A program made the translations under genes and the position numbers. Below are positions 17,560 through 32,352 of a stretch of DNA of 64,000 nucleotides, one piece after another. Position 1 is the stretch's first letter. Each line of letters begins with the position of its first letter. The notes below the pieces were generated by a model. The model was not told where the DNA came from, did not search any database, and saw only the letters and a program-made list of their open reading frames with translations. Where the stretch lies: positions 1-64,000 of IMG/VR virus record IMGVR_UViG_3300023176_007894; one strand, given 5' to 3'. The DNA is from a virus.

Positions 17560-17644
17560 TTGACAAATAATCAAATATAGAGTATAATAGATACATAAAT
17601 TTGAGAACAAAACTCAATCAAATAAAATAAATCGATCTTTAACA
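17560..17644 (+). promoter_or_regulatory. Consensus sigma70 promoter with a boxB-like hairpin and boxA-like antitermination sequence
   Basis: TTGACA(17560)-N17-TATAAT(17583); TTGAG-AACAAAA-CTCAA hairpin at 17601-17617; GATCTTTAACA at 17634-17644. Confidence 0.65.
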
Positions 17645-17657
17645 TTTTAAACACTTT

Positions 17658-17868
17658 GGAAGCCTCGACGGAGTCTTCCTGTGGGTGACCCGAACAAGCC
17701 TGTCGTGAGCGGGCTAAGGTATGCAGATTCCCTGTGGCGGGGCGATAGAGTCCAATCGGATGAGTCGATGACAAATGCCAAGTCTAATTTGTAGTTCGAA
17801 GTAGGTAACATAGCAACTGATGTTCACGCCGAAAAGTTGGAGGTATACAGTAGTCCTTCCCCACACCA
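17658..17868 (+). ncRNA. Unassigned structured non-coding RNA ending in CCA
   Basis: No sense ORF; GC-rich; several hairpins and a putative pseudoknot; TGTGGG/CCCACA terminal stem plus CCA; has its own promoter and terminator. Confidence 0.7.
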
Positions 17869-17890
17869 TTTTCTTTCTTAATCATAGCTT

Positions 17891-17923
17891 ACCCATCCAA
17901 GCAAATGCTTGGGTGGGTTTTTT
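17891..17923 (+). terminator. Rho-independent terminator
   Basis: ACCCATCCAAGC-AAAT-GCTTGGGTGGGT followed by a T run. Confidence 0.85.
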
Positions 17924-17959
17924 ATTGACTTCCTTCGAAAACCTGTCATACTAGATATC

Positions 17960-18214
17960 ATGAAAACGCTAAAAGACATTCTTGCCAACTACGGATACAT
18001 TAACCAAGCTCAACTAGCTGAGATCAACGAACACTTTCCGCACATGAAAGTAGTAATCAAATGGGGTGGAATGCCTCGTGAACGAGTGCATGCATGGAAA
18101 GCAATCGAACGCATCGAAAAGGTCGAGGCGGAGAACACCGACTATTGTCGAGAAGTATTTCTTTGTGCCCAAGATTGTCAAAATCTTCGCACAGCACTCC
18201 ACATTGCACAATAA
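17960..18214 (+). CDS. Hypothetical protein
   Basis: ATG 35 nt after TTGACT(17925). Confidence 0.7.
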   Translation: MKTLKDILANYGYINQAQLAEINEHFPHMKVVIKWGGMPRERVHAWKAIERIEKVEAENTDYCREVFLCAQDCQNLRTALHIAQ

Positions 18215-18232: not shown

Positions 18233-18811
18233 ATGATTAATCCTGCAGAAGTAACAAATTACAATCGAACACAATACGAACTAGAAGAATTTATTCTTTT
18301 TTGCATTAATGTAGCAGGAAAGAAAAGTTCAATCGAAGCACCCAAACTAGAAGTATTTATTCAAAGAGCAAAAGACATAACAAAAGAAGCAACACCATTT
18401 AATTGCATTAGGAAATTGATTAAATTGGGCAGGCTTAATGAAATCATGCATTGGGCAAAGTTGAGTCCGTATGCTCAGCGATACAATTCATATTTTGATG
18501 TTGTTAAGATCAAGGATCTACGAGCAGTAACCCTGAACAGATTATTGAAGGTACCAGGCATAGGTCTCAAGACTGCAAGATTCTTCCTTTCGCATAGTCG
18601 CGAAGACTTCGACGAACCTATGCTTGACACGCACATCCTTAGGTTTCTTCGAGACCAAGGTTATGTTGATGCTCCCAAGAGTACTCCTTCTAACGAGAAC
18701 ACCTATCTTTATTTCGCGAACATCTTCAAAAACATTGCTCGTCAATTGGGCAAATCAGTTACAGATCTTGATCTTGAAATTTGGAAGGAATATTCGGGCA
18801 CCACTGCATAA
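18233..18811 (+). CDS. HhH-GPD/OGG-like DNA glycosylase homologue
   Basis: LLKVPGIGLKTARFFL helix-hairpin-helix with Lys, LDTHILRFL Asp, DLDLEIW. Confidence 0.75.
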   Translation: MINPAEVTNYNRTQYELEEFILFCINVAGKKSSIEAPKLEVFIQRAKDITKEATPFNCIRKLIKLGRLNEIMHWAKLSPYAQRYNSYFDVVKIKDLRAVTLNRLLKVPGIGLKTARFFLSHSREDFDEPMLDTHILRFLRDQGYVDAPKSTPSNENTYLYFANIFKNIARQLGKSVTDLDLEIWKEYSGTTA

Positions 18812-19014: not shown

Positions 19015-19110
19015 TTTTGTGCAATCGGGGCCCCCCCTTAATTGAATAGGTCAACAAATTAGGTGGATATTAGCCTTGACTTTGGGCAGAAAATCTTCAT
19101 AATGGAGTCA
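19015..19110 (+). repeat. Cassette-boundary element copy 1 (G4C7) plus promoter
   Basis: GTGCAATC-GGGG-CCCCCCC...ATAGGTCAA...TTGACT..CATAAT..ATG. Confidence 0.65.
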
Positions 19111-19505
19111 TGATTAAGACAAAGCCTGACGAAAAAAGGTACGAGATTAATTTCAACAAGCCCGTTTTTGTTTACAAGAATCTCCACAAAGACTGTTGGA
19201 GCGTCAAACAAGATGGATTAGTCAAAGCTCACACCACAAGCCTTGCGATGCACAGTTGCACTTTTAAGGTAAGCGAAGCAGGAAGAAAGCGTGTGTTAAA
19301 CGAGCAAAGAAAAAATGTTCACGCAGGAATCCAAGGTTACATTGAGGAGCAAGTTGGTAATTGGATTGATTCGCATCCTACTGCTCGACCTGTAACTTAC
19401 AATCCGTACAAGTATGAGAATTTTGTTGACAAGGACACGGAACAAATGGTAGACTATGCTATTGCCGTGAGACTAGAACCTAAACAAGTATTAGCAGTAT
19501 TATGA
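19110..19505 (+). CDS. Conserved phage hypothetical protein (VYKNLH...GRKRVLNEQRKNVHA)
   Basis: Recognisable widespread phage motif; leaderless promoter. Confidence 0.75.
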   Translation: MIKTKPDEKRYEINFNKPVFVYKNLHKDCWSVKQDGLVKAHTTSLAMHSCTFKVSEAGRKRVLNEQRKNVHAGIQGYIEEQVGNWIDSHPTARPVTYNPYKYENFVDKDTEQMVDYAIAVRLEPKQVLAVL

Positions 19506-20947: not shown

Positions 20948-21023
20948 GGACCCGTAGCTCAGCGGTTAGAGCAGGGCACTCATAATGCCTTGGTCCTCGG
21001 TTCGAATCCGAGCGGGTCCACCA
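20948..21023 (+). tRNA. tRNA with CAT anticodon, most likely tRNA-Ile2 (lysidine type)
   Basis: 76-nt cloverleaf GGACCCG/CGGGTCC-A-CCA, loop CTCATAA, TTCGAAT; C4-G69 and C5-G68 as in Ile2 tRNAs; no initiator features. Confidence 0.9.
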
Positions 21024-22900: not shown

Positions 22901-23617
22901 ATGATTAAGACAACGCTACTCACTCAAGGAAACGCAAAGATAGTCAAAGGCGAAAAGCTTGGCTATACAACCAAAGGAATTCATCTCGCTCCAGCTCAAC
23001 TTTCGGGCTATGAGGTTTGCCAATGGCGAAGCAAAGGTTGCACTGCTTCTTGCCTCAATACTGCGGGTCGTGGTCAAATGGACTCAATCCAAAAGTCTCG
23101 GATTGCAAAGACAAAATTGTTTTTTACTCAGCGAATGGATTTCCTTGTGAAGCTATCGAAAGAAATTTCTAGTTCAATTAAGACATCAGCAAAGAAGGGT
23201 ATGAAGTCAGTCTTCAGGCTTAACCTTACAAGTGACATTGCTTGGGAAAACATCATCAATGAAGATGGCGTGACTATCTTTGAGAAGCATGGCAAAACTC
23301 AATTTTACGATTACACAAAATCATTTGAACGCATGAAGCAATTCATTCATGGAGAGTTGCCAAGTAATTACCATTTGACTTTTAGTCGCTCCGAACACAA
23401 TGACAAGTTGTGTAAGTTGGTTCTTGCTATGGGTGGCAATGTGGCGGTAGTCTTTCGCAATCAGTTGCCCGAAACTTGGCAAGGTTATGAAGTCATCAAT
23501 GGCGATGAAAATGATTTGCGTTTTCTTGACAGGCAAGGTGTTGTCGTCGGTCTTATTGAAAAAGGGATGGCAAAGAAAGACTCAACGGGATTTGTCCAAG
23601 AAGGAATTAACTCTTGA
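22901..23617 (+). CDS. Gp88-like phage protein
   Basis: VCQWRSKGCTASCLNTAGRG, RLNLTSDI, QFYDYTK, NYHLTFSRSE, GDENDLRFLD. Confidence 0.75.
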   Translation: MIKTTLLTQGNAKIVKGEKLGYTTKGIHLAPAQLSGYEVCQWRSKGCTASCLNTAGRGQMDSIQKSRIAKTKLFFTQRMDFLVKLSKEISSSIKTSAKKGMKSVFRLNLTSDIAWENIINEDGVTIFEKHGKTQFYDYTKSFERMKQFIHGELPSNYHLTFSRSEHNDKLCKLVLAMGGNVAVVFRNQLPETWQGYEVINGDENDLRFLDRQGVVVGLIEKGMAKKDSTGFVQEGINS

Positions 23618-24585: not shown

Positions 24586-24690
24586 ATGATTAAGATCAGG
24601 AAAACCATTCTCTTCACCAAGTCAAGACCTCACAAGGTCAAAGCAAAGGTGATTCACAGAAAGCTCAAACACAAGGAGAAATTGCAGTAA
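24586..24690 (+). CDS. 34-aa highly basic peptide (not in the ORF track)
   Basis: MIKIRKTILFTKSRPHKVKAKVIHRKLKHKEKLQ; ATG 35 nt after TTGACA(24551). Confidence 0.65.
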   Translation: MIKIRKTILFTKSRPHKVKAKVIHRKLKHKEKLQ

Positions 24691-26720: not shown

Positions 26721-26888
26721 TTAAGAAAAAAACGGATGCTTGCGAACCGAAGAAAGAGGAACAGCAACACGCTTTTGCGAGCGATAGATGCGAGCGAGAA
26801 CGAAAGTCTCTGCTCCGTCTTTGTGAAAGCCTTCGACCTGAAGGATTCTTTTTTTGTAATCAATGAGAACATCTTTAATCTTAATCAT
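26721..26888 (-). CDS. Small SH3/KOW-like hypothetical protein
   Basis: True start MIKIKD directly after the element promoter. Confidence 0.65.
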   Translation of the reverse strand: MIKIKDVLIDYKKRILQVEGFHKDGAETFVLARIYRSQKRVAVPLSSVRKHPFFS

Positions 26889-27907: not shown

Positions 27908-28096
27908 TTACCAAACGAAGCCTCCTACAGCGCCCGTCCTGCCAACGGCAAGAGGGTGAAGCTCCAAGTCGGTGACGGGCACCGACCAGATGCGCGAGGA
28001 GTAACCCCGTGCACGGACGACTGCGACGCCGTCGGTTAAGGACTCAACCACGCAGGAGAATCCGTTGAAGAGAACGATATCATTAATCTTAATCAT
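27908..28096 (-). CDS. Small SH3/KOW-like protein, copy A
   Basis: Near-identical to 30965-31153. Confidence 0.7.
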   Translation of the reverse strand: MIKINDIVLFNGFSCVVESLTDGVAVVRARGYSSRIWSVPVTDLELHPLAVGRTGAVGGFVW

Positions 28097-29560: not shown

Positions 29561-29752
29561 TTACGCAATCCATTCGACAAGCTCAAACTTGCGAGGAAGG
29601 TTAAACTTAGCAAGATCACGATTGAGATTCTCAATTGAATCGTGGTGTTCGCATTTGAGAAGTTGATTCTCTGCGATGATGTCGCCCGTCTTGCGGTCAA
29701 CGATATTAACTTTGGCGATGAAGCCGTTTACTTGTTTATCATTCTTAATCAT
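29561..29752 (-). CDS. Hypothetical protein
   Basis: First gene after element copy 9. Confidence 0.65.
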   Translation of the reverse strand: MIKNDKQVNGFIAKVNIVDRKTGDIIAENQLLKCEHHDSIENLNRDLAKFNLPRKFELVEWIA

Positions 29753-30686: not shown

Positions 30687-30847
30687 AACTTTTAACTTTA
30701 GGATTTTAACTTTCTTATCTTAACTTTATATGTATAACTTAGCACACAATGTGCGAAATGTCAAATTTTTTTTTCACTTTTTTTCACTTTTTTCATCTTA
30801 GCGATGACAAACTTGCAAAGGATTTTTTCTCTTTCGGTTAACTTAAT

Positions 30848-30964
30848 CATGTCTATAACATAGCACAGAAAACCCGAAAAGTCAAGAAAAACTTTCAACT
30901 ATTTTATTGCACAATCCTACTGCGGGGGGGCCCCCAAGCCTGCAAGCCATTGACTGTCAAAGGC
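30848..30964 (-). repeat. Cassette-boundary element copy 10 (G7C5) plus promoter
   Basis: Same block; right flank as in copy 7. Confidence 0.9.
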
Positions 30965-31153
30965 CTACCAAACGAAGCCTCCTACAGCGCCCGTCCTGCC
31001 AACGGCAAGAGGGTGAAGCTCCAAGTCGGTGACGGGCACCGACCAAACCCTCGAGGAGTAGCCCCGAGCACGGACGACTGCGACGCCGTCGGTTAAGGAT
31101 TCAACCACGCAGGAGAATCCACTGAAGAGAACGATATCATTAATCTTAATCAT
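30965..31153 (-). CDS. Small SH3/KOW-like protein, copy B
   Basis: Near-identical to 27908-28096. Confidence 0.7.
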   Translation of the reverse strand: MIKINDIVLFSGFSCVVESLTDGVAVVRARGYSSRVWSVPVTDLELHPLAVGRTGAVGGFVW

Positions 31154-32232: not shown

Positions 32233-32352
32233 TCAAATTTTTTTTTTCACTTTTTTTTCGATTATTTTAGTGAGAGTAGAAAGAACATTCTTCTTGCCTT
32301 TGGCTTTCATTCGACGGGCGAGCTTTTGGAGTTCATTCTTTCTCTTAATCAT
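32233..32352 (-). CDS. 39-aa basic peptide (not in the ORF track)
   Basis: MIKRKNELQKLARRMKAKGKK...; first gene after element copy 12. Confidence 0.5.
   Translation of the reverse strand: MIKRKNELQKLARRMKAKGKKNVLSTLTKIIEKKVKKKI

Follow-up and report, generated by a model that had tools for sequence, protein, structure and literature searches.

A divergent manA RNA in a transcription unit of its own in an uncultured marine phage lineage

The window considered here is a 64,000-nt stretch of viral DNA (IMG/VR record IMGVR_UViG_3300023176_007894, positions 1 to 64,000), in which positions 17560–17923 had been described in a first-pass annotation, made from the letters alone, as a stand-alone structured RNA of no known family. 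A full-length covariance-model match and covarying helices indicate that the folded RNA seen there is real and is a divergent member of the manA family (RF01745). The stand-alone part of the earlier description holds, as the RNA has its own promoter, a leader resembling that of ribosomal RNA (rRNA) operons and a terminator, whereas the claim that it lies outside every known family does not. We consider it fairly probable that in this uncultured lineage of large marine phages manA is an autonomous early RNA gene and not a 5′ untranslated region (5′ UTR), with a proposed role in trans. From 5′ to 3′ the unit comprises a consensus host-type promoter, a ∼63-nt leader and the manA core, then a tail that is single-stranded and a strong intrinsic terminator. 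Relatives of the window are denoted by locus numbers of the type L001.

The manA fold and its covariation

Scanning of the whole window with the Rfam covariance models returned manA RNA at 17658–17869 on the plus strand with 64.4 bits (E = 4.3e-14). The match spans model positions 1–192 of 192, exceeds the gathering score of 55.2 and is the sole Rfam match in the flagged region; other Rfam families at E values up to 1 gave only noise at the site. As the match lies above the gathering score, the RNA is not unclassified. The scan that the first-pass annotation had itself named as the check on novelty thus returned a strong match to a known family, the outcome it had set against its own reading, which fails on this central point. 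The family was proposed as a riboswitch candidate by Weinberg et al. in 2010 (PMC2864571), and its Rfam alignment was corrected in Rfam 14.3 (PMC7779021). In common with other manA RNAs, the window copy matches the model over its full length, has the same helices, resides in marine phage DNA, carries both complementary loop pairs described below and retains the conserved blocks GUGAC, UAAGGU, GUGGYG with the RCCA loops, and GGUAUACAGUARUCC. It differs in its score, which is 64 bits against the 160–187 bits of the classical copies (12 other viral loci sharing the 3′ word), in having one longer arm, and in belonging to a lineage unrelated to the T4-like cyanophages. A relative, L121, scores 84.4 bits.

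The Rfam structure places on the plus strand of the window the P1 hairpin (17658–17679), a closing stem GUGGG/CCCAC (17681–85/17860–64), a GNRA hairpin (17698–17714), a multiloop stem (17723–28/17787–92), three hairpins inside the multiloop region (17730–42, 17743–67 and 17770–84) and a 3′ hairpin at 17839–59 with a GGAGG/CCUUC stem (arms 17839–43/17855–59). P1, the GNRA hairpin and the GGAGG/CCUUC stem, all three drawn by hand in the first-pass annotation, agree with this structure and covary, and the closing stem drawn there likewise agrees with it, although it is invariant within the clade. Covariation was assessed in an alignment of the window with 38 distinct relatives (39 sequences), the cassette having been found whole by nhmmer in ∼60 loci. 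RNAalifold predicts 44 pairs from this alignment, 18 of which show compensatory changes. When the Rfam structure is projected onto the same sequences via the cmscan alignment, 88.8% of the cells are paired and double changes occur in 25 of the 56 Rfam-derived pairs, with a covariation score of 0.300 against 0.156 in shuffles (none of 500 reaches it) and 0.07–0.10 in slid controls; these values support the fold. Between the classical copies and the window the closing stem has changed from GGGAG/CUCCC to GUGGG/CCCAC, both sides being compensated. The exception to the kept family fold is the 3′ arm, which is remodelled in the clade of the window: its outer helix (model positions ∼135–141 with 163–169) is not kept, cmscan marking its pairs as non-canonical or deleted, and helices 11 and 12 of this arm are paired in 70% and 31% of cases, respectively, in the 39-sequence alignment. 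The block is 51% GC and has no conserved open reading frame (ORF), relatives showing indels of 1–2 nt, as had been noted from the window itself.

Other pairings drawn by hand fare differently. The H-type pseudoknot suggested between CAACT and AGTTG has no compensatory change, is paired in 66% of cases and is broken by the variation observed. The GGTAT/ATGCC closure, the GTCTA/TAGGT helix with TTTG/CGAA, and the AACAT/ATGTT hairpin together show no double change and a covariation of 0.073 against 0.076 in shuffles. In that region it is the Rfam helices that covary.

Two loop–loop contacts accompany the secondary structure. The loop UGGC (17735–17738) pairs with the loop GCCA (17777–17780), both on the plus strand; in the 39-sequence alignment GUGGC is accompanied by GCC(A/G) in 6/6 cases, and GUGGU by ACCA in 24 of the 29 scorable GUGGU rows, two of the others having G·U and three being mismatched. 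On the same strand the loop ACUG (17816–17819) is complementary to the loop CAGU (17848–17851) of the conserved GGUAUACAGUAGUCC hairpin. This second pair is retained in 32 of 39 sequences, is replaced by ACUAAA/UUUAGU (6 bp) in L110 and L112 and is extended to 5 bp in L121 and L123, which suggests a single independent compensatory event and thus gives the contact modest support. Classical manA copies carry both loop pairs (GUGGY/RCCA and ACUG/CAGU). A 2026 cryo-electron microscopy preprint (10.64898/2026.07.01.735769) describes manA RNAs that form octamers, decamers and a 60-subunit cage in vitro, the assemblies being pentamers joined by intermolecular kissing loops L5–L7′ and L8–L9′ or L3–L8′. 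Judged by position, UGGC/GCCA probably corresponds to its L5–L7′ kissing loop, and ACUG/CAGU is most likely a candidate for L8–L9′. In being stand-alone, phage-borne and highly structured, with self-assembly seen in vitro in other manA members, the RNA resembles ROOL and GOLLD. These two large RNAs, which are carried by phages or prophages and are reported to assemble into homo-oligomeric cages, are far larger than the present RNA and share no sequence relationship with it, and neither has an Rfam match in the window.

Promoter, leader and terminator of the unit

The flanks of the core were compared in 110 distinct units of the clade that were available with full flanking sequence. The perfect promoter noticed earlier, a sigma-70-type TTGACA-N17-TATAAT at 17560–17588 on the plus strand, is the only 12/12 match between 14 and 22 kb, and a promoter scoring at least 10/12 is found in 101/110 units. 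By the TTGAC-35-ATG rule of the neighbouring genes, transcription is predicted to start at ∼17595 (A), 7 nt past the −10 element; where the neighbouring leaderless genes have ATG at this position, the window reads ATA, so the absence of a start codon there, also remarked upon earlier, is borne out. The predicted leader contains a hairpin of TTGAG, a 7-nt loop and CTCAA (17601–17617, plus strand) that is boxB-like by position, as had been proposed. It is conserved in 95/110 units and covaries, a compensatory change from G–C to A–U giving TTAAG/CTTAA in L011, L026, L029 and L077.

A boxA-like element, CGATCTTTAACA, follows at 17633–17644 on the plus strand, in a predicted single-stranded A/U-rich tract; the word itself, GATCTTTAACA, occupies 17634–17644, where it had first been pointed out. 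The word was kept in 36/42 relatives and later in 103/110, against an expectation of ∼3% of units by chance, as estimated from base composition. GYTCTTTAANA is the gamma-proteobacterial boxA consensus of Baniulyte et al. (PMC5725501), whose boxA search left non-coding RNAs aside. The window agrees with it at 10 of 11 positions, and the form GTTCTTTAATA found in some relatives at 11 of 11; the boxA of the host may follow another consensus. The tract is unpaired in the minimum free energy (MFE) fold, and a search for leader–trailer pairing of the kind that forms a processing helix found none (mean z +0.19). Since the leader does not pair with the trailer, and the leader hairpin, core and terminator appear as separate modules in the MFE fold, the boxA tract has the appearance of a single-stranded site for binding.

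The order of strong promoter, hairpin, boxA-like element, structured untranslated RNA and intrinsic terminator is that of rRNA operons, whose leaders direct antitermination through boxB and boxA with NusB, NusE, NusA and NusG as well as SuhB (PMC5725501, PMC4807359), and the likeness includes the match of 10–11 of 11 positions to the gamma-proteobacterial boxA. The product differs, being a phage RNA of ∼210 nt and not rRNA, and the phage unit has no leader–trailer processing helix. In rRNA operons, boxA confers resistance to Rho and aids co-transcriptional folding (PMC4807359, PMC8632103). By analogy, we infer that the boxA-like leader loads Nus factors: it may recruit the antitermination complex of host NusB and NusE, which would protect an untranslated and highly transcribed RNA from Rho and assist its folding during transcription.

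The intrinsic terminator proposed earlier lies at 17891–17918, or 17891–17924 in a wider delimitation, on the plus strand and consists of a 12-bp stem, a 4-nt loop and a T-run (−21.5 kcal/mol). A terminator of −12 kcal/mol or stronger is present within 110 nt in 83/110 units and within 300 nt in 102/110, and the stem sequences differ among relatives. The next ORF, at 17960, is leaderless and lacks a Shine-Dalgarno sequence, and 35 nt upstream of it lies a TTGAC of its own; relatives show the same layout. L007 and L040 alone look UTR-like, with an ORF 20–29 nt past the core and no terminator.

Additional modules are seen on both sides of the core. Extra folded modules sit between core and terminator in units where the terminator is farther off; one is a second conserved element of ∼75 nt (L121, 5303–5377, plus strand) that begins GCGGAGGTTGTGTGTTGCCTC, occurs also in L120, L123, L128, L136, L168 and L238, has a related form in L073 and is absent from the window. 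Its MFE fold resembles a cloverleaf, having a closing stem plus three hairpins, and it gave neither an Rfam match above threshold nor a transfer RNA (tRNA) call. Hairpin modules of 50–100 nt lie between boxA and P1 in L011, L028, L055, L059, L066, L099, L102, L109, L120 and L129, and relatives with such insertions keep boxA and the invariant TTTGG before P1. Since hairpin modules are inserted while boxA and TTTGG are kept, the unit looks modular.

This arrangement differs from that of the classical manA loci, in which the −10 element of a consensus promoter ends 5–8 nt before the motif, leader and terminator are absent, and a Shine-Dalgarno sequence and ATG follow within 30–60 nt; the downstream genes, in the two cases checked, encode gp32 and transaldolase. 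Classical manA is a true 5′ UTR. Among the cyanophage-type loci of this layout are L016, L038, L044, L047, L005 and L058. As the −10 element ends so close to P1, the gp32 or transaldolase mRNA would carry the manA fold at its very 5′ terminus. The unit of the window, by comparison, is provided with a terminator of its own and a ∼63-nt leader bearing the hairpin and the boxA-like element; a subset of the clade also has an antisense tail. The 5′-UTR location on which the ‘Cis-reg’ typing of the family is based is a contextual annotation and not a structural criterion; it does not apply to the window unit, and the setting of manA in the window contradicts the ‘Cis-reg’ label.

The 3′ tail and its possible partners

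Between core and terminator lies a conserved single-stranded tail, TTTCTTAATCAT (17874–17885, plus strand), which the MFE fold leaves unpaired. Its reverse complement reads ATGATTAAGAAA, given as AUGAUUAAGAAA for the 5′ end of leaderless early mRNAs: the tail is exactly complementary to the first 9–11 nt of nine such predicted messages, which share the tag AUGAUUAAGA. The 9-mer ATGATTAAG occurs 10 times in the window, where 1.5 ± 1.2 occurrences would be expected and 200 simulations gave no more than 5; nine of the ten fall exactly at leaderless starts with TTGAC 34–35 nt upstream, and the tenth is the antisense of the tail. Enrichment is seen only for exact copies of the 9-mer at gene starts; with three mismatches allowed, the 13-mer anti-tail pattern gives 66 matches in the window against 59 expected. 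The nine tagged genes represent at least seven unrelated protein families; paralogy therefore does not account for the shared 10 nt, which contain the codon AAG, the genome being AT-rich. Predicted tail–tag duplexes range from −8.7 to −13.2 kcal/mol, compared with an average of −5.3 for untagged leaderless starts, and for every tagged start the tail is the best predicted pairing site on the 331-nt transcript.

The candidate targets on the plus strand are the starts of leaderless genes of 131 aa (Phage_L5_gp82 family; 5′ end ATGATTAAGA, 19110–19119, ΔG −10.6), 238 aa (22901–22910, ΔG −10.6) and 34 aa (24586–24595, ΔG −12.0). Those on the minus strand are the starts of genes of 55 aa (26879–26888, ΔG −10.7), 62 aa (28087–28096, a duplicate of the gene starting at 31153), 63 aa (29743–29752, 11 nt of contiguous complementarity, ΔG −13.2), 29 aa (30842–30850, 9 nt of complementarity, ΔG −8.7), 62 aa (31144–31153) and 39 aa (32343–32352, ΔG −12.8). 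There are 35 predicted leaderless starts (TTGAC-N29/30-ATG) in the window, of which 14 begin ATGATT and nine begin ATGATTAAG. The six minus-strand tagged starts also share a near-identical promoter element of ∼45 nt (AAAGTTTTTCTTGACTTTTCGGGG...), consistent with a cassette junction that has been repeated.

The block TTCTTAATCA stands unchanged in 13 distinct tails, 12 of which have T next, while the flanks, spacer length and terminator vary; its conservation stops where the mRNA +1 would pair. Because the spacers between core and tail vary by non-multiples of three, there is no conserved minus-strand ORF; an ORF running on the minus strand from 17885 was considered and rejected, having no promoter and no conserved frame. 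The relation between tail and tag was surveyed in 125 distinct RNAs, the pattern being seen in IMG/VR loci and repeated in metagenome loci. Around RNAs that carry the block complementary to the tag, 53/218 leaderless starts are tagged (24%) and four read ATGATTAAA (AAG:AAA 53:4), whereas around RNAs without it 11/409 are tagged (2.7%) and 35 read ATGATTAAA (AAG:AAA 11:35). A tail variant complementary to ATGATTAAA was looked for in genomes without the block and none was found. Presence of the tail requires nine changes on the RNA-core tree and two on the tree of neighbouring genes, so the tail–tag association rests on about two independent contrasts.

Trans-acting antisense small RNAs are a class that occludes translation starts. 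The unit resembles them in having a conserved single-stranded seed of 10–12 nt just before an intrinsic terminator, and in the complementarity of this seed to the initiation regions of several mRNAs. It differs in that the targets in the window are leaderless and the seed is predicted to pair with the extreme 5′ end, AUG included, and in that the seed is attached to a large family-conserved fold that oligomerises in vitro in other members. Pairing of tail and mRNA as an RNA–RNA duplex is accordingly best described as a plausible, tentative candidate interaction: the few contrasts, the absence of the block from most clade members and the location of the targets in a cassette region lead us to rate it as plausible, not as shown.

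In the interpretation that we favour, the released RNA of ∼330 nt would act in trans and not in cis, the core would bind to copies of itself through its conserved kissing loops, in the way seen in vitro for manA RNAs, and in tail-bearing phages the tail would pair with the AUG-containing 5′ ends of the tagged leaderless early messages and either block or tether them. That a widespread clade of marine phages carries manA as a separate, strongly promoted gene, with a terminator and an rRNA-like leader, argues that the fold can itself be the product and is not a cis switch only. The tail–tag complementarity is a directly testable hypothesis on what a manA RNA acts on, singling out leaderless early genes that share a 5′ tag at the nucleotide level. 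A bolder extension, which we regard as speculative and rather unlikely, is that manA is a portable 5′ module, cis-fused in cyanophages to selected mRNAs, those of gp32 and transaldolase among them, but detached and delivered in trans here, where the tail would pair with the AUGAUUAAGA regulon and the oligomers would capture, silence or cluster messages. Were this true, an orphan ‘riboswitch candidate’ would gain its first concrete function and the first RNA cage with RNA cargo would be at hand; the family has had the status of an orphan riboswitch candidate since 2010, and the cited preprint shows it building RNA-only decamers and a 60-mer cage in vitro.

Several observations weigh against the favoured interpretation. 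The MFE of the whole transcript is ordinary (z −1.09), so that support for the fold rests on covariation. The boxA of the window has A at position 2, where the consensus has a pyrimidine, and the word is not enriched across the window (nine matches against 7.1 expected); its weight thus comes from conservation across relatives. The block complementary to the tag is present in only 24 of the 125 distinct RNAs, most clade members having no such block, and the tail therefore cannot be the core function of these units; 11 tagged starts occur in genomes without it, and all nine targets of the window fall within one repeat-rich cassette region. The approximately two (2–4) independent tail–tag contrasts all point in the same direction, but a sign test is not significant (p 0.25–0.5). 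Oligomerisation of manA RNAs (10.64898/2026.07.01.735769) is known in vitro and for other family members only.

The cassette region lends itself to another explanation, in which the RNA, still a stand-alone unit, is solely structural or an assembly RNA and the tail complementarity would be a vestige, or else a place in the DNA where cassettes are shuffled, namely an inverted copy of the conserved ‘promoter + ATGATTAAGA’ junction through which cassettes of early genes recombine. The nine tagged genes all lie between 19 and 32 kb, six of them with the near-identical promoter element, and recent duplication is evident from the genes at 28096 and 31153, which are 97% identical; the tail motif is moreover clustered on the neighbouring-gene tree, with its two changes, and is missing in 101/125 clade members. 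Shuffling of DNA cassettes nevertheless sits poorly with a similarity that is confined to the first 10–12 transcribed nt and does not reach into the promoter on the other strand, and with the absence of a minus-strand promoter and of a conserved minus-strand ORF, the latter excluded by the spacer lengths. The invariance of the block in 13 distinct tails despite diverging flanks argues for selection, and the synonymous choice between AAG and AAA follows tail presence. We regard this explanation as unlikely, though it deserves some weight.

A riboswitch or attenuator, in which the manA core would be a ligand-binding aptamer gating read-through of the terminator into the early genes (the ‘Cis-reg’ role), appears improbable. 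Such a role would accord with the proposal of manA as a riboswitch candidate (PMC2864571), with the classical copies being true 5′ UTRs, with the terminator that follows the core in the window and with the two UTR-like units, L007 and L040. Neither terminator arm, however, shows complementarity to the core (mean z −0.27 and −0.17 against shuffled arms in 32 relatives), and since the modules also fold independently the terminator looks constitutive. Core–terminator spacers range from 8 to 47 nt, the terminator sequences are unrelated, and some relatives place extra RNA modules in between; the downstream gene being leaderless, with its own promoter and no Shine-Dalgarno sequence, a read-through RNA would offer it a poorly translated internal AUG. 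Far less probable still, to the point that we set it aside, is the first-pass proposal of a processed mimic of tRNA that has an H-type pseudoknot and ends in CCA, or else of an RNA of no known class. It drew on the CCA that follows the closing stem in the window and on the 3′ hairpin that stacks on that stem. The CCA is present in the window but not conserved, relatives having ACCA, ATCT, ACTA, TTCA and others at this place, and the hairpin likened to a T-arm has an 11-nt loop that contains no T-loop and is engaged in the different, covarying loop–loop contact. Besides the manA match and the lack of covariation in the pseudoknot, ARAGORN finds no tRNA or transfer-messenger RNA at the site (its only call being the tRNA-Met at 20948), and there is no Rfam tRNA match there.

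The phage genome and neighbouring genes

The window is phage-like, encoding a T4-type terminase, a DnaE-type polymerase, a ribonucleotide reductase, an ATP-dependent ligase and a ClpB/ClpC-like ATPase. Megablast for cultured relatives of the window returned no match, the terminase and DnaE proteins are 22–28% and 30–33% identical, respectively, to their closest matches, and the putative capsid gene gave no match. Relatives abound in IMG/VR, where their contigs reach 184 kb, and are found on at least 119 contigs from Tara and other marine metagenomes, the listed contigs all being at least 1 kb long. The 3′ signature of the clade occurs in only 2 of 185,579 species genomes. The two contigs concerned, L128 (NZIN01000056.1) and L129 (JAQXAG010000040.1), are short, have 30–34% GC and belong to metagenome-assembled genomes with conflicting labels (Rickettsiales and Neomarinimicrobiota); they carry the manA unit and orthologues of genes of the window phage, and are probably phage contigs binned into these genomes.

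The manA unit is followed 3 kb downstream by a tRNA-Met (CAT) gene (20948–21023). A tRNA is also kept in the more distant relatives L125 and L126, for which manA gave no match at the gathering threshold. The conserved neighbour gene of 192 aa (18233–18811) matches phrog_11575 and is weakly similar (Pfam, E = 1.6e-6) to the end of 8-oxoguanine glycosylase that holds the helix-hairpin-helix. The first tagged gene (19110–19505, 131 aa) is assigned to the Phage_L5_gp82 family with E = 8e-35.

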